In this document: piece by piece, positions 1 through 5,578 of the stretch | How the letters are laid out: the number at the start of each line of letters is the position of its first letter | How positions within the stretch are numbered: the stretch's first letter is position 1 | NCBI RefSeq assembly: GCF_003334335.1 | Contig: NZ_QOWQ01000076.1 | Origin: Escherichia coli | GTDB lineage: Bacteria > Pseudomonadota > Gammaproteobacteria > Enterobacterales > Enterobacteriaceae | DNA length: 5,578 nt | Strand: one strand, 5' to 3' | Notes under the pieces: model-generated | Told to the model about the DNA's origin: nothing | The model's database searches: none | What the model saw: the letters and a program-made list of their open reading frames with translations, nothing else | Program-made: the position numbers and the translations under genes

Positions 1-82
1 CTTTATTATCGAGTTCGGTGACCGCCTGGACGGCCACTTCTGAGAAAAGGTATTTACACAGAATCCTGAACAGGCTCCCGTA

Positions 83-118
83 AAGCGGCAACTTTATTGA
101 GTTGCCGCTTTTTTATTC
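83..118 (+). terminator. Rho-independent terminator-like hairpin in the intergenic region downstream of ycaK
   Basis: Inverted repeat AAGCGGCAACT (83-93) / AGTTGCCGCTT (100-110) with 6-nt loop TTATTG, followed on the + strand by a run of seven T then ATT (109-118). On the - strand the stem is followed by only TTTA, so it looks mainly like a terminator for a + strand gene entering from the left (pflA expected by synteny), possibly shared with ycaK. Confidence 0.6.
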
Positions 119-153
119 CGCGCTTCATTCTGCTACAGCGTTTTTAACACATC

Positions 154-744
154 TTATAGTGCATCTACCATATCCCGTACCTGAGATAATAACGACTGAT
201 AATAGCTCGCGTGAAGTTCTTCCCCATCGAATACCACTGTATTACACAAGAAAGTGACATCGGCATCTTCAATACCAAGATAACTGCACATATTTTTTAA
301 ATAATCGCTTATATTTTTTTCCCAGCCCATCTGGACAAATGATTCTTTGTCTCCTCCAACCAGCGCCACCCAACGAACTTTATTGAATGGTAATTTGTGC
401 CCATCTCCATAAGCCAGCCCATTATTCCATACTCTGTCAATATATCCTTTTAGCATTGCCGGGAAGCTGTACCACCAGAGAGGAAAAACCACCACTAACG
501 TGTCATGTTCAAGCAGCTCTGAATAAAGCTGATGAACCTCTGGAGAATAACGTTTATCCATATTCTTCCAGTCTGGTTCATCTTCCGGCGTCATCACTGG
601 GTTGAAATTACGCCGATATAAATCGAGTTCCGTCACCTGTATTTTCCGCTCCATTGCCCGCTGATGGATCGCATCAGCAATATGTGCGGTCAATGAATCA
701 TGACGAGGATGGGCCCATACCAAATAAATACGTTCAGACTGCAT
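154..744 (-). CDS. ycaK: Flavodoxin-fold NAD(P)H dehydrogenase (quinone)-like oxidoreductase, 196 aa
   Basis: ORF of 196 codons, ATG at 744-742, TAA at 156-154. GGAGG Shine-Dalgarno (complement of 752-756) sits 8 nt upstream of the ATG. N-terminal RIYLVWAHPRHDS resembles the AHP motif of the KefF/KefG/MdaB flavodoxin-like quinone reductase family. Length and sequence agree with my recollection of E. coli YcaK; neighbours match the expected order. Confidence 0.88.
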   Translation of the reverse strand: MQSERIYLVWAHPRHDSLTAHIADAIHQRAMERKIQVTELDLYRRNFNPVMTPEDEPDWKNMDKRYSPEVHQLYSELLEHDTLVVVFPLWWYSFPAMLKGYIDRVWNNGLAYGDGHKLPFNKVRWVALVGGDKESFVQMGWEKNISDYLKNMCSYLGIEDADVTFLCNTVVFDGEELHASYYQSLLSQVRDMVDAL

Positions 745-843
745 AATTTTACCTCCACGTTAAGTTCTGGAGCGCACTTTACGCAGGCGGCATAATCCTG
801 TAAACGTGATGATTCAGGATGAGTTAATGAAGGATTTTCACTA
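745..843. promoter_or_regulatory. Divergent ycaK/ycaN promoter region with candidate LysR-type operator dyad
   Basis: 99-bp spacer between divergent start codons. Candidate ycaK promoter on - strand: -35 TTTACA (complement of 799-804), 17-bp spacer, -10 TAAAGT (complement of 776-781). Candidate ycaN -10 CATAAT at 791-796 on + strand, and AAGGA RBS at 830-834 nine nt before ATG 844. Dyad ATCCTG (795-800) N14 CAGGAT (815-820) overlaps the ycaK -35. All hexamers were found by eye and are not experimentally supported. Confidence 0.35.
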
Positions 844-1752
844 ATGCGGATGAATATGTCTGACTTTGCCACTTTCTTTGCCGTGGCCCGTAATCAAAGC
901 TTTCGTGCAGCGGGCGATGAGTTAGGCTTATCCTCGTCCGCCATTAGCCATAGTATTAAAACACTGGAACAACGTCTTAAAATTCGCTTATTCAATCGGA
1001 CAACCCGAAGCGTATCGTTAACGGAAGCGGGTTCTAATCTCTATGAACGATTGCGCCCAGCTTTCGACGAAATTCAGATCATGTTAGATGAGATGAATGA
1101 TTTTCGTCTGACACCGACAGGAACGCTCAAAATCAATGCCGCCCGGGTAGCTGCACGTATATTTTAAATGTCTTTACTGGTTGGTTTCACACGTGAATAT
1201 CCTGATATTAAAGTCGAGCTCACAACTGACGACTCTCTTGTCGATATCGTCCAACAGGGCTTTGACGCTGGCGTTCGACTTAGTTGCATCGTCGAAAAAG
1301 ATATGATCAGCGTGGCGATCGGCCCGCCAGTGAAATTATGTGTAGCAGCAACGCCAGAGTACTTTGCAAGATATGGCAAACCCCGCCATCCTCATGATCT
1401 GCTTAATCATCAATGTGTTGTTTTTCGTTATCCCAGCGGCAAACCTTTCCACTGGCAATTTGCAAAGGAGCTGGAAATTGCTGTCGCAGGAAATATCATT
1501 CTGGATGATGTTGATGCTGAACTGGAGGCCGTTTTGATGGGTGCTGGTATCGGGTATCTGCTCTATGAACAGATCAAGGAGTACCTTGATACTGGTCGTT
1601 TAGAATGTGTACTGGAAGACTGGAGCACAGAGCGTCCAGGCTTCCAGATCTATTATCCAAACCGCCAGTATATGTCCTGCGGCTTGCGCGCATTTCTCGA
1701 TTATGTAAAAACGGGTCAGATCTGCCAGAGTCAGCGTCACCGACCACAATAA
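844..1752 (+). pseudogene. ycaN: LysR-family transcriptional regulator interrupted by in-frame TAA at 1165-1167 (N-terminal HTH fragment 844-1167, effector-domain fragment 1168-1752)
   Basis: One reading frame from ATG 844 to TAA 1750-1752 spans 303 codons; codon 108 is TAA (1165-1167) and is followed immediately by ATG 1168 in the same frame. The 107-aa fragment carries a typical LysR winged-helix HTH (FRAAGDELGLSSSAISHSIKTLEQRLKIRLFNRTTR). The 194-aa fragment begins in the LysR linker/substrate-binding region (LLVGFTREYPDIKVEL). 107+1+194 = 302 codons, the size I recall for intact E. coli YcaN, so this is a point nonsense change rather than a frameshift. Confidence 0.75.
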
Positions 1753-3183
1753 TTATTTACTATTCGCTTTACGCGCCAGCAGCGGGAATATCAGTCCTAA
1801 TCCTACCAGCACAAACGGCGTTGCAACATTCAGCGCCAACTGGAAGGTCCACTCTGCAGTGAAGGCTTCCATTTTCGGGAAGATCCCCGTCAAACAGGCA
1901 AAGGCGGTAAAGGCAAAACACCAAATCCCGACGGTCATTGCCAGAGGCTTATTACGAATAAAGACATATTCTGGTTTATATTTCTGCGCCAAGCGAACGA
2001 CTGCAATAAATGCAACAAATACCCATAAATAACGCAGCGGCATCACTACCGAATTAAGGTTCAACAGCCATTTATAGAGATTGTTCATATCACCAATGCC
2101 GAGAGTCGGCAGCATAATCAGAATCGCCACCAGTACCAGGGTCAGAAAATAGCCATTAACGGGCGTACCAGAAGCGTTGGTACGACATAAACTGGCTGGA
2201 ATATATTTGCTGTCAGCATCACCTAATAGCACTTTAAGCGGGGCATCAATCGAGAATACCAGCGCCGCTACTTGTCCCAGGGTATTCGCAATGGCGTAAA
2301 TCACCATTAAAGTATTACCCATGTTGTAATACTCGCCCAGCTTCTGAAAGGCGTAATACTGACCGTTGGTCATTAAGTCATCCGGGATATTACGCGAATC
2401 AAACATCATCCCCATCGCCAGCGAGCCCAGAATGGCACAAACCGCAACCATCACCGCCAGGCATAACATCCCTTTTGGAAATTCTTTTCCTGGGTTGCGC
2501 GTTTGATTAACGTAAGGAGAAATCTTCTCTGCTCCGCCAACCGCGAAAACCAGCATTGAAATAGTGGTAATGTAGGTAAAGTCGATATGAGGAATGAACG
2601 TTTCCCAGGTAATGTTTGTGGTCGCAATATGCACTTCAGTAATTGCAGGCGCGGTTACCGCCATCGCCACATACAGGAGCGACATAACAAACATAGCAAT
2701 CCCTGCCACAGAACCGACGATTTTCAGCGATTTCATACCGCGTGAAGCAACCCACATAAAGAAGATAAACAGCACCAGCGTTAACCCCTGTAACGCTACG
2801 ACTGAATATTCTTTGATTAGCGAACCGTCGCCTTTCATCGCCCAACCGAGCGCAATCAGAATTGCCTGGGGTTTTTGTGCCAGATAGGGAATATGCACCA
2901 CCCAGTAGGTCCACGCGGCGAGATAAGCCAGTCCGGGTCCCATCGTGTGTTTAATCCAGGTACTGACCCCGCCCTTCCCATCTTTGAAGGTCGAGCCTAA
3001 CTGACCAACAATTAGCGCATAAGGTGTGAAATAGAGTGCAAAGATAAACACCCATGAAAAAACAACCACCAGCCCCTGGTTGGCATAGTTATTAACAACG
3101 TTGCCAAAACCCCAGACAGTGATAAAAGACATCAGCGCAATGTTGTACCATCGCAACTGTTTTTCCTGAACATTCCCAGCCAT
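1753..3183 (-). CDS. ycaM: Putative APC-superfamily permease (amino acid/organocation transporter-like), 476 aa
   Basis: The long - strand ORF ends with TAA at 1755-1753. The biological start is taken as ATG 3183-3181 (MAGNVQEKQLRWYNIAL...), which has AAGGA 9 nt upstream and gives 476 aa, the length I recall for YcaM. The protein is highly hydrophobic with multiple predicted TM segments. The ORF-track start at 3375 is a GTG inside the ycaD terminator stem and is rejected. Confidence 0.85.
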   Translation of the reverse strand: MAGNVQEKQLRWYNIALMSFITVWGFGNVVNNYANQGLVVVFSWVFIFALYFTPYALIVGQLGSTFKDGKGGVSTWIKHTMGPGLAYLAAWTYWVVHIPYLAQKPQAILIALGWAMKGDGSLIKEYSVVALQGLTLVLFIFFMWVASRGMKSLKIVGSVAGIAMFVMSLLYVAMAVTAPAITEVHIATTNITWETFIPHIDFTYITTISMLVFAVGGAEKISPYVNQTRNPGKEFPKGMLCLAVMVAVCAILGSLAMGMMFDSRNIPDDLMTNGQYYAFQKLGEYYNMGNTLMVIYAIANTLGQVAALVFSIDAPLKVLLGDADSKYIPASLCRTNASGTPVNGYFLTLVLVAILIMLPTLGIGDMNNLYKWLLNLNSVVMPLRYLWVFVAFIAVVRLAQKYKPEYVFIRNKPLAMTVGIWCFAFTAFACLTGIFPKMEAFTAEWTFQLALNVATPFVLVGLGLIFPLLARKANSK

Positions 3184-3267
3184 AGACAAATCCTTCGCCA
3201 AAATTAAAGGGGCATCTGTAAAACGAGGGATTATGCGCGGCAAATAAGAAGTGCGGAAATAGCGAAA

Positions 3268-3305
3268 TGCAAAATTATAACCTGCTGCACATTTTATTTT
3301 TAAAC
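3268..3305 (-). promoter_or_regulatory. Candidate sigma70 promoter for ycaM
   Basis: Perfect TATAAT on the - strand (complement of 3274-3279) about 90 nt upstream of ycaM ATG, with an AT-rich upstream region (3291-3305) but no good -35 hexamer. Located downstream of the ycaD terminator, so ycaM is probably transcribed independently. Confidence 0.3.
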
Positions 3306-3340
3306 GAATAAAATTTGGAATAAAGCAAGTCAGATAGAAG

Positions 3341-3384
3341 AAACAAAAAAGCAGAGTGTGAAACAGTAAGTTCACACTCTGCTT
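3341..3384 (-). terminator. Rho-independent terminator of ycaD
   Basis: Perfect 14-bp inverted repeat AAGCAGAGTGTGAA (3349-3362) / TTCACACTCTGCTT (3371-3384) with 8-nt loop. On the - strand the stem is followed by TTTTTTGTTT (complement of 3341-3350). It starts 9 nt after the ycaD stop codon (3393-3395). Confidence 0.8.
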
Positions 3385-3392
3385 GAATTCAT

Positions 3393-4541
3393 TTACACGT
3401 GAGCAACGGGTTTCGGCGTATGACCGGCGTTGCGCAGCAGCATCAGCAAATAGATAAACGATACGCTGGCGATCATGATAAACAATAAATTATCGGAGAA
3501 ATTCTGCATTAGCATAGCGGTAAATGACGGGCCAAGCAGACTTCCCACAGTATAGCTCAACAGTAAGGCCTGGTTCATCGCCACCAGTTGATGATGTTCA
3601 ACTTTCTCGCAAGCCCATGCCATCGCCACCGGATATAGCGTAAAGCCAGCGGCACCGAGGATGAATAACGCTGGGGCCATCGCCGCCTGGCTAAGCATCG
3701 CGATACTGCCGAGAATGACGACAAAGACCTGAACACGCAACACCAGCAGTCGACCAAACTTATCCGCCAGACGTCCAATCGGCCATTGTCCAAGGATACC
3801 CGCACTGACCAGTACCGCCATCCAGAAACCAATGCTGGCATTGCTCACCCCTTTGTGATTGAGGTACAGCGGCATCAGGCCATATAGAGATCCCAGAACG
3901 ATTCCTGAGATAATGCAGCCATTCACGCCAAGCCGCGCCTGACGGAGTTTTAGCATTGACGTAATTGACGTCGAATCATGGTTTTCAGCCTGCTGATTCA
4001 GCACACGCGTAAACAACAGCGGTAAGATCCCTGCCAACGTCAAACCTGTAACCCACGGCAATACGGACATCAGCTCGGTTGAAACTTTGCTGACCAGTAA
4101 CTGGCCTAAAAACGTTCCCACGTAATAAACCATCATATACGCAGCAAGCAAACGCCCACGGTTACGTGACGTCCCACTGCACATCAGCGCGCTCTCAACA
4201 ACCACCCAAATCATGGCACAGCCGACGCCCGCGACAAAACGCCAAGCCAACCAGCTCCAGAATCCAATCATCAGGCCAAGGCCGGCACAGCCAGCGGCAA
4301 AAATGAAGGAGGCCAGATAATAGCTGCGGTTAAAGCCAATGCGCTTAATGACATACCCTGTCAGCAATGTACCGACAAGGTTGCCGGTAAAATAGGATGA
4401 GCTGACAACGCCTACCTGCCATGTGGACATGTGTTCCTGGGCGAGCCAAAGCGGCACGAGTGTATTTAACACCGCAATCGCCAGAGTCAACAAAAGCAGG
4501 CCAGACAGCAAAAGCATGACAGGCTGGGTATACGTGGACAT
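3393..4541 (-). CDS. ycaD: Major facilitator superfamily transporter, 382 aa
   Basis: ORF of 382 codons, ATG 4541-4539, TAA 3395-3393. Contains the MFS signature motif A between predicted TM2 and TM3 ([13 protein letters not shown]) and about 12 hydrophobic segments. Length and sequence match my recollection of E. coli YcaD. The Shine-Dalgarno is weak: no GGAGG-like element in the 15 nt before the ATG. Confidence 0.9.
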
Positions 4542-4854
4542 GAATTAAAACCGTGAGGAAGTTCAAATTTCATGCGCATCATGCCACCGCCAAAAACATT
4601 GTCAATGGGTGAAAATACGCGATATCCCAGCGGCGGTATTATCGATTAATATTACTCATTCATAACGCTAATGCTGAAGAGATGATTAGTCTCATCTGAT
4701 TGTTTTTATTGAACTAACACAAATTTCATACGCTTCGTTCAGTCGAAAAATTTCATGGTCACAGCAAACTCATATTTCCCGTCTATGCTTTCAGAGCAAT
4801 GCATCGCGTCTGATCGATTTCAGACGTACCACTGACTCTCGAAAGGAGAAGAGG
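4542..4854. promoter_or_regulatory. 313-bp divergent ycaD/ycaC control region
   Basis: AT-rich non-coding spacer between divergent start codons. TTGTCAA at 4599-4605 gives a perfect -35 TTGACA on the - strand (complement of 4600-4605) for ycaD, with a weak -10 CATGAT 16 nt downstream. AAATTTCAT occurs three times (4565-4573, 4721-4729, 4748-4756). Strong AGGAG RBS 5-9 nt before ycaC ATG 4855. No convincing ycaC -10/-35 pair was found by eye. Confidence 0.35.
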
Positions 4855-5481
4855 ATGACCAAACCGTATGTTCGTCTTGATAAAAATGATGCTGCCGTTT
4901 TGCTTGTTGATCACCAGGCTGGTTTACTTTCCCTTGTACGGGATATCGAACCCGATAAGTTTAAAAATAACGTGCTGGCGCTGGGTGACCTGGCTAAGTA
5001 TTTCAACTTACCAACTATTCTTACCACCAGTTTTGAAACCGGTCCTAACGGCCCATTAGTTCCAGAACTGAAAGCACAATTCCCCGATACACCTTACATT
5101 GCTCGCCCGGGAAATATTAACGCCTGGGATAACGAAGATTTTGTAAAAGCTGTCAAAGCGACAGGTAAAAAACAGTTAATTATTGCCGGTGTGGTAACCG
5201 AAGTTTGCGTGGCATTCCCGGCGCTTTCAGCCATTGAAGAAGGGTTTGACGTCTTTGTCGTGACTGACGCGTCAGGGACCTTTAATGAAATTACCCGGCA
5301 TTCGGCATGGGATCGCTTGTCGCAAGCTGGTGCGCAATTGATGACATGGTTCGGCGTGGCGTGCGAGCTGCATCGCGACTGGCGTAATGATATTGAAGGA
5401 CTGGCGACGTTGTTCTCTAACCACATTCCTGATTATCGTAATTTGATGACCAGTTATGACACGTTAACGAAGCAGAAATAA
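4855..5481 (+). CDS. ycaC: Isochorismatase-family (cysteine hydrolase) protein, 208 aa
   Basis: ORF of 208 codons with AGGAG Shine-Dalgarno, ATG 4855, TAA 5479-5481. Carries the isochorismatase-family signature: LLVDHQ with the catalytic Asp at residue 19, and a Cys in VVTEVCVAFPA consistent with the catalytic Cys of the Asp-Lys-Cys triad. Length and sequence match my recollection of E. coli YcaC. Confidence 0.9.
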   Translation: MTKPYVRLDKNDAAVLLVDHQAGLLSLVRDIEPDKFKNNVLALGDLAKYFNLPTILTTSFETGPNGPLVPELKAQFPDTPYIARPGNINAWDNEDFVKAVKATGKKQLIIAGVVTEVCVAFPALSAIEEGFDVFVVTDASGTFNEITRHSAWDRLSQAGAQLMTWFGVACELHRDWRNDIEGLATLFSNHIPDYRNLMTSYDTLTKQK

Positions 5482-5515
5482 AAGAGAACCGGGGCCGAAA
5501 CCCATAAGCGCTAAC

Positions 5516-5578
5516 TTAAGGGTTGAACCATCTGAAGAATGCGACGCCTCGGTGCCTCGTTAAGACGATGCCTCGCGT
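5516..5578 (-). CDS. Possible 3' end of a convergent gene, truncated by the window edge (dmsC expected by synteny)
   Basis: The last 60 nt are GC-rich and open on the - strand up to the window edge in two frames: one ends ...TRGIVLTRHRGVAFFRWFNP with stop at 5518-5516, the other ends with stop at 5513-5511. I cannot tell from sequence which frame, if either, is real, and I could not match it to a remembered protein C-terminus. Confidence 0.25.
   Translation of the reverse strand, partial: TRGIVLTRHRGVAFFRWFNP

Follow-up and report, generated by a model that had tools for sequence, protein, structure and literature searches.

We analysed a 5,578-nucleotide stretch of Escherichia coli DNA (NCBI RefSeq assembly GCF_003334335.1, contig NZ_QOWQ01000076.1; the whole stretch is called the window below). 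The window corresponds to the interval between pflA and dmsC on an E. coli chromosome of the K-12-like kind (phylogroup-A-type) and holds five genes:

154-744, minus strand: ycaK, 196 amino acids (aa), NAD(P)H quinone-oxidoreductase-like flavoprotein (Flavodoxin_2 / NQO family)
844-1752, plus strand: ycaN, LysR-type regulator gene, a pseudogene in the window
1753-3183, minus strand: ycaM, 476 aa, APC-superfamily permease, YjeM/GadC-like (glutamate:GABA antiporter family)
3393-4541, minus strand: ycaD, 382 aa, MFS transporter
4855-5481, plus strand: ycaC, 208 aa, isochorismatase-family cysteine hydrolase

An earlier reading of the letters alone (the original prediction) had proposed that these genes form a module for the uptake and the detoxification or catabolism of a small molecule. 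Our analysis suggests that the five genes are very probably separately transcribed, evolutionarily independent and neighbours by history, and not one functional module. Within the neighbourhood, ycaN and ycaK stand out as a pair that recurs in other taxa.

The predicted gene identities were correct. All five open reading frames (ORFs) were found in the ORF list at their predicted positions, and an NCBIfam scan of the window ORFs, using curated bit-score cutoffs, upheld the family calls. YcaK scored 354 bits against NF007280 (cutoff 162), YcaC scored 403 bits against NF041461 (“isochorismate family cysteine hydrolase YcaC”; cutoff 310), and YcaD scored 728 bits against NF002962. Over 5427 bases, window positions 77-5503 were 99.93% identical to the MG1655 chromosome. 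YcaK, YcaM, YcaD and YcaC were each 100% identical to their counterparts in K-12 MG1655 (b0901, b0899, b0898 and b0897, respectively). The statement that none of the genes has an established physiological substrate also agrees with the record, as all five are annotated as “putative” in MG1655 and YcaC was called “uncharacterized” in a 2025 paper (PMC12553813). An Rfam scan of the whole window for riboswitches and small RNAs gave nothing above threshold and two sub-threshold chance matches.

We determined how often each gene is present in 5426 complete E. coli genomes, counting matches to at least 80% of each query:

ycaK: 3323/5426 (61.2%)
ycaN: 3324/5426 (61.3%)
ycaM: 4358/5426 (80.3%)
ycaD: 5425/5426 (99.98%)
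ycaC: 5422/5426 (99.9%)

These counts show that ycaK, ycaN and ycaM are accessory in E. coli and that ycaD and ycaC are core. The neighbourhood had been described as conserved core chromosome with no accessory character, which is true of ycaD and ycaC; the other three genes vary among the 5426 genomes. The losses run in blocks, either ycaK-ycaN or ycaK-ycaN-ycaM, and ycaD-ycaC stay. We observed three structural haplotypes with clean junctions. The first carries all five genes (61%). The O157-type haplotype is without window positions ~129-1639, so that ycaK and most of ycaN are gone and a 113-nt remnant of the ycaN 3′ end is kept. The ST131-type haplotype is without positions 115-3342, and ycaK, ycaN and ycaM are all gone. 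The accessory genes are thus missing from major pathogenic lineages. The G+C contents of ycaK (42.8%, the lowest of the five), ycaN (46.6%) and ycaM (47.2%) are all lower than the 52.0% of ycaD. Five to seven matches per region or gene fell on plasmid-labelled records of complete E. coli assemblies.

The neighbourhood was not kept across species. We surveyed 80 species-representative YcaC loci with 10-kb flanks by tblastn with the E. coli proteins, counting as orthologues matches of at least 40% identity. Within 10 kb of YcaC, we observed no YcaK orthologue (0/80 loci) and no YcaN orthologue (0/80), every LysR match being at most 32% identical. YcaM and YcaD were near YcaC in three of the 80, namely E. 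coli and two Citrobacter species. The neighbours that YcaC usually has are others: a distinct LysR regulator (52/80), which as a rule lies directly upstream in divergent orientation, a pirin (48/80), and a second YcaC-like isochorismatase, a paralogue (20/80). A flavin mononucleotide (FMN) reductase was near YcaC in 2-3 of the 80 species only. At the E. coli, Citrobacter and Salmonella loci, the usual partners of YcaC (its own LysR, the pirin and the paralogue) were missing.

The YcaC-linked LysR is of the NF011573 type; between Marinobacter, Pseudomonas and Brucella, its copies share 52-57% identity. We considered the YcaC-adjacent LysR of Marinobacter, Brucella and Pseudomonas as a YcaN orthologue and rejected it, as it is 25-27% identical to YcaN. 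Another lead, that yhaJ/yhaK might be the E. coli counterpart of the YcaC-linked LysR and pirin, was also rejected: YhaJ is 23-25% identical to the former and YhaK gave no match to the pirin at E < 1e-5.

Other members of the family Enterobacteriaceae carry different subsets of the five genes. Salmonella has the order pflA-ycaM-ycaD-ycaC-dmsC, without ycaK and ycaN. Pseudocitrobacter has dmsC-ycaD-ycaN-ycaK at the same chromosomal site, without ycaM and ycaC. A check of neighbourhood conservation across Proteobacteria had been suggested with the original prediction, and these two loci show that the five-gene set is not kept. An unlinked phylogenetic distribution had been named in advance as evidence against the module, and this is what we observed, both in the block losses within E. 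coli and in the absence of YcaK and YcaN from all 80 YcaC loci. The species distributions resolve the neighbourhood into the units {ycaN, ycaK}, {ycaM}, {ycaD} and {ycaC}. In Pseudocitrobacter corydidari, the dmsC-pflA slot (extracted locus 3851-8685) additionally holds a choloylglycine-hydrolase-family gene and a second LysR gene. Within Enterobacteriaceae, the slot thus has the look of a site where insertions vary.

The one association that recurred was between YcaN and YcaK. Beyond E. coli, the identity of YcaK homologues drops fast to 45-67%. A YcaN orthologue (44-79% identity) was nonetheless divergently adjacent to YcaK in 6/6 sampled distant taxa (Pseudocitrobacter, Hafnia, Salmonella Panama, Gilliamella, Burkholderia gladioli and Chelativorans), with a spacer of 98-146 bp. 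The surroundings of the pair were otherwise unrelated among the six taxa, and some were transposase-rich. The regulator-plus-reductase part of the module idea is thus supported. In the window, the space between the two genes contains the following features:

745-843, no strand assigned: ycaK/ycaN control region, 99 bp, divergent
804-776, minus strand: promoter-like TTTACA-17-TAAAGT toward ycaK
795-820, no strand assigned: perfect dyad ATCCTG-N14-CAGGAT, overlapping the -35-like TTTACA; candidate YcaN operator
813-831, no strand assigned: TTCA-N11-TGAA, adjoining the ycaK promoter-like site; candidate YcaN operator

Pseudocitrobacter has an almost unchanged version of this control region, and conservation is also good in the Hafnia and Gilliamella intergenic regions. 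The usual layout for LysR-type regulators is an upstream recognition site with an activation site at the -35. The arrangement of the candidate dyads in 745-843 would fit this layout. From the conserved pairing and the site arrangement, we infer that YcaN is a dedicated regulator of ycaK that binds the shared 99-bp region.

The family of YcaK points to the likely role of the pair. PF02525/PF03358 were found on YcaK homologues (cluster members), and the N-terminal part of YcaK is similar to the solved chains of NQO1, NQO2 and KefF. YcaK is also routinely among the candidates in nitro- and quinone-reductase libraries. We found no demonstrated physiological substrate for YcaK in the literature. 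Because of this fold family and library use, the ycaN-ycaK cassette would, by analogy, most likely function as a quinone- or electrophile-responsive reductase system.

In this genome, the regulator gene of the pair is interrupted. We observed an in-frame TAA in ycaN at 1165-1167. Aligned with the gene of strain ML35, the sole difference was a T to A change at base 1166, which turns TTA into TAA at Leu108 of 302. The ORF list accordingly splits the gene into two entries in the same frame (844-1167 and 1168-1752), and the ATG at 1168, the codon right after the stop, opens a 194-aa ORF that spans the effector-binding domain. The residual product is a 107-aa fragment made up of the winged helix-turn-helix (wHTH) and linker. 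Pfam places HTH_1 (PF00126) at residues 6-62 and LysR_substrate (PF03466) at residues 90-289 of intact K-12 YcaN. A stop after residue 107 therefore removes nearly all of the LysR_substrate domain, and the window encodes the DNA-binding head and linker only. The combined wHTH and LysR_substrate architecture is present in the intact K-12 allele and not in the window allele. In calling ycaN a LysR regulator, the original prediction had the family right and overlooked the internal TAA. As the effector-sensing half of YcaN is gone in this strain, any ligand-dependent control of ycaK would be lost.

The stop allele is not confined to the window. Using an 81-base probe across the site, we found the exact allele in 33 of 3325 ycaN-bearing complete genomes. 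Strain CP8-3_Sichuan matches window positions 77-5500 with a bit score consistent with full identity, and its identical ycaN allele was flagged as an “internal stop” pseudogene by PGAP. Natural ycaN nonsense alleles therefore exist and could be used as ready-made tests of YcaN targets.

The transcription layout also separates the genes. From ycaK to ycaC, the orientations are minus, plus, minus, minus and plus. A terminator scan combined with RNA folding gave strong terminator hairpins at two boundaries only, listed here with the other control elements of this part of the window:

82-111, no strand assigned: pflA terminator hairpin, GC-rich, with the T-run on the plus strand; -20.3 kcal/mol, z = -5.3
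3349-3384, minus strand: ycaD intrinsic terminator, a 14-bp stem then UUUUUUGUUU; -21.9 kcal/mol, z = -6.2
3303-3274, minus strand: promoter-like site for ycaM
4542-4854, no strand assigned: ycaD/ycaC control region, 313 bp, divergent
4605-4578, minus strand: promoter-like TTGACA-16-CATGAT toward ycaD

The terminator at 3349-3384 divides ycaD from ycaM, the sole co-directional pair. In ST131-type genomes, where the 3.2-kb ycaK-ycaN-ycaM segment is missing, the same terminator forms the right-hand junction of the missing segment, and the two terminator hairpins come to lie nearly adjacent. The hairpin at 82-111 may be bidirectional and also weakly terminate ycaK; on the minus strand, only three U follow its stem. 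ycaN and ycaM are convergent, and their stop codons abut at 1750-1755 (TAA|TTA) with zero intergenic bases and no terminator, so their transcripts must overlap. The ycaM-ycaN pair is listed as a convergent “excludon” in K-12 RNA sequencing (RNA-seq) data (PMC12288877). The layout is best read as five monocistronic units. The claim of four units with terminators between them holds in that the units are separate; a count of five fits better, and terminators do not stand at every boundary.

The crystal structure of YcaC has been solved, and the ycaC product of the window gave a full-length match to its PDB entry 1YAC (E = 2e-138). The active site is reported to be unusual (Asp19-Ala83-Cys118), with Ala83 in place of the usual Lys, and no gamma-lactamase activity was seen (PMC12553813). 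We checked the translation of the window ycaC against the residue list in that paper and found Asp19, Gln21, Ala83 and Cys118 to be present. The YcaC cysteine can be alkylated by acrylamide (Groftehauge et al. 2015, PMC4519933). Across the 80 species surveyed, YcaC was 85-99% identical, including 85-91% in Pseudomonas, Marinobacter, Burkholderiales, Brucella, Sphingopyxis, Acinetobacter and a Geobacter metagenome-assembled genome. This conservation is far above that of the other four proteins and was remarked on earlier by Groftehauge et al. 2015 (PMC4519933). E. coli ycaC is a documented single-gene unit, activated by BaeR, repressed by Fnr, and further controlled by Crl/RpoS and a YdeO>GadE cascade. 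In Klebsiella oxytoca CP046115.1 (extracted locus 1-8624), we observed a lone YcaC orthologue (89% identity) beside a phage-type integrase, AlpA, RadC and DUF2787. This integrase-type context suggests that ycaC may have been horizontally transferred on an integrative element.

The best family matches of YcaM were to YjeM (161 bits) and GadC (102 bits). The curated cutoffs are 400-650 bits, and scores so far below them make YcaM a paralogue. The Salmonella orthologue of YcaM is 93% identical. The only YcaM phenotype that we found in the literature is altered colistin sensitivity (bioRxiv 10.1101/2025.07.07.662571), and for ycaD we found incidental mentions only, as a neutral integration site and as the location of a weak internal FliA site. 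The annotated 476-aa YcaM starts at ATG 3183, with an AAGGA ribosome-binding site upstream. A 540-aa GTG-initiated ycaM ORF (1753-3375; the GTG is 64 codons upstream of ATG 3183) was rejected as an ORF-calling artefact that runs through the ycaD terminator.

Taken together, our data favour a neighbourhood of independent parts. In this reading, LysR regulator YcaN and its divergent probable target ycaK would be a portable two-gene cassette. Judging from its architecture, YcaN most likely binds the 99-bp region and would turn ycaK on upon sensing a small redox-active or electrophilic ligand. In the window genome, the Leu108-to-stop change would disable the cassette on the regulator side. ycaM (APC) and ycaD (MFS) would be two enterobacterial transporters with promoters of their own. 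In most other bacteria, ycaC is part of another operon, together with a LysR of its own and a pirin, often with a YcaC paralogue as well and at times with an FMN reductase; E. coli ycaC stands alone under the stress regulators BaeR, Fnr, RpoS/Crl and the GadE cascade. The two insertion sequences (IS) at the window ends, IS1414 and IS186, flank the block by chance in this strain.

Several points weigh against this reading. Deletion of ycaN in BW25113 lowered ycaC and raised ycaD and focA in RNA-seq data (Rodionova et al. 2022, Sci Rep 12:7274, PMC9068703). The same paper lists ycaC and ycaD as YcaN targets and states that YcaN “regulates adjacent y-genes”, with a role given as “unknown” (PMC9068703). 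Some regulatory cross-talk within the neighbourhood may thus be real. The experiment used late-exponential cells of a kanamycin-cassette mutant and yielded 702 differentially expressed genes (PMC9068703); with so many changed genes and a cassette mutant, indirect or polar effects are possible. On our side, the candidate dyads are single occurrences and no rarer in the window than expected by chance, the YcaC survey leans heavily towards Pseudomonas, and the YcaK context sample is small (6 taxa plus E. coli). We found no published experimental demonstration of YcaN regulating ycaK. A ChIP-exo screen reports six YcaN binding sites (PMC8464067).

An unlikely alternative is a non-orthologous replacement. 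Here, the horizontally acquired YcaN/YcaK cassette would have taken over, in K-12-type E. coli, the roles of the YcaC-linked LysR and FMN reductase, giving a three-part quinone or electrophile defence around YcaC in which the transporters have no part. Genuine YcaC operons (Pseudomonas, Marinobacter) do contain functional analogues of both partners, E. coli YcaC is without its usual LysR and pirin neighbours, and ycaC expression drops in the ycaN deletion (PMC9068703). However, ycaC is kept in more than 99.9% of E. coli genomes with or without ycaK and ycaN, an FMN reductase is near YcaC in few species (2-3/80), no YcaN-type dyad lies upstream of ycaC, and the ycaN nonsense allele persists in 33 genomes with ycaC intact. 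Because genuine YcaC operons elsewhere hold a LysR-controlled flavin reductase, we keep a replacement in view as an unlikely explanation. If it were true, natural ycaN-null alleles such as that of the window would be informative loss-of-function variants.

The original module would have YcaN sense, YcaD and YcaM move, YcaC hydrolyse and YcaK reduce an amide, ester or quinone. Its composition is plausible, and the shifts of ycaC and ycaD expression upon ycaN deletion (PMC9068703) agree with it. So does the EcoCyc prediction that Nac regulates ycaK, ycaC and ycaD (PMC9068703). YcaC orthologues elsewhere are also co-transcribed with a flavin reductase under a LysR regulator (P. aeruginosa PA1202-PA1205/BexR, and Marinobacter). 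The module is nevertheless hard to reconcile with five genes in separate transcription units, with a strong terminator between ycaD and ycaM, and with ycaC having documented regulators of its own. Among complete E. coli genomes, 39% keep ycaC and ycaD without ycaK and ycaN, and 20% are also without ycaM. Salmonella and Citrobacter have only ycaM-ycaD-ycaC, Pseudocitrobacter has only ycaD-ycaN-ycaK, and YcaK and YcaN were beside YcaC at none of the 80 loci. Candidate YcaN dyads were not found in the ycaD/ycaC control region, and the proposed sensor is a pseudogene in the window with the other four genes intact. We therefore consider a single five-gene module to be quite improbable. The caution with which it had been put forward, with co-function as a hypothesis only, was appropriate.

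The window is bounded by IS ends on both sides:

1-78, plus strand: right end of IS1414 (IS256-family), with the transposase C-terminus (ending in FIIEFGDRLDGHF before the stop) and the terminal repeat; identical to the annotated IS1414 end
5503-5578, minus strand: terminal 76 bases of IS186/IS421 (IS4 family), with the terminal repeat CATAAGCGCTAACTTAAGGGTTG from 5503

The IS1414 insertion separates the stop codon of pflA from the pflA terminator hairpin (82-111), and homology to the ML35 and K-12 chromosomes begins at base 77. IS186 lies within GGGGCCGAAACCC, inserted 21 bp past the ycaC stop. ML35 has an annotated IS421 transposase at its ycaC-downstream junction, and the IS186 junction was present in 32/5426 complete genomes from varied hosts. 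This recurrence could reflect common descent or a hot spot for insertion. Among complete RefSeq E. coli genomes, none had the IS1414 end joined to the ycaK-ycaC block, and none showed the two IS junctions together with the ycaN stop. The IS ends at both edges and the few region matches on plasmid-labelled records (5-7 places) could point to a mobile, composite-transposon-like island, a reading that we rejected as scarcely credible: the left element is of the IS256 family and the right one of the IS4 family, which makes composite transposon action impossible, the genes occupy their normal pflA-dmsC chromosomal position, and the IS186 junction is limited to 32 genomes and the IS1414 junction to no complete genome.

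Much of what can be said of this neighbourhood is already in databases and papers, including the five genes and the families they belong to, the structure of YcaC and how unusually conserved it is, and the idea of YcaN as a controller of nearby y-genes. The module finding as stated adds little: the E. coli “y-genes” in question are catalogued, and both their clustering and the possibility that YcaN controls them had been published. What our analysis adds is the ycaN pseudogene, the flanking IS elements, the accessory status of three genes and the informative cross-species associations. Guilt by association within the neighbourhood is not a sound basis for proposing a common substrate. What is informative is the pairing of YcaN with YcaK and the set of genes that accompanies YcaC elsewhere (another LysR, a pirin and a YcaC paralogue). 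The usual neighbours of YcaC elsewhere are a better lead to its function than its E. coli neighbourhood.

The closest known system is the b0897-b0901 region of E. coli K-12 MG1655 (ycaC, ycaD, ycaM, ycaN and ycaK, from dmsC to pflA), which the window matches in gene order and orientation. The window differs from it by the ycaN Leu108-to-stop change, by IS1414 after pflA and by IS186 after ycaC. Rodionova et al. 2022 (PMC9068703) likewise handled ycaN-ycaK-ycaM and the adjacent ycaC and ycaD as a gene cluster; the ycaN that they studied was the intact K-12 gene, and their paper does not cover how ycaK, ycaN and ycaM vary in presence among E. coli or the other partner set of YcaC. YcaK resembles the NQO1/NQO2/KefF/MdaB-type flavin quinone reductases (Pfam Flavodoxin_2) by NF007280, by PF02525 and by alignment to solved chains. 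It has no link to a Kef channel, and its conserved partner is a LysR regulator. For YcaM, the nearest families are the APC permeases of the glutamate:GABA-antiporter family (YjeM, GadC), all scores being below cutoff. A known operon that resembles the original prediction is that of P. aeruginosa, in which BexR, a LysR regulator, controls the YcaC orthologue PA1202 (structures 4WGF and 4WH0), co-expressed with PA1203-PA1205, which encode a redox protein, an NADPH-FMN reductase and a pirin (Turner et al. 2009, PMC2796861; PMC4051601). As in that proposal, a YcaC orthologue and a flavin reductase are joined under LysR control. In contrast to the window, this operon is without an MFS or APC transporter, its reductase is the FMN_red protein PA1204 and not a Flavodoxin_2/NQO-type protein such as YcaK, and it includes a pirin.

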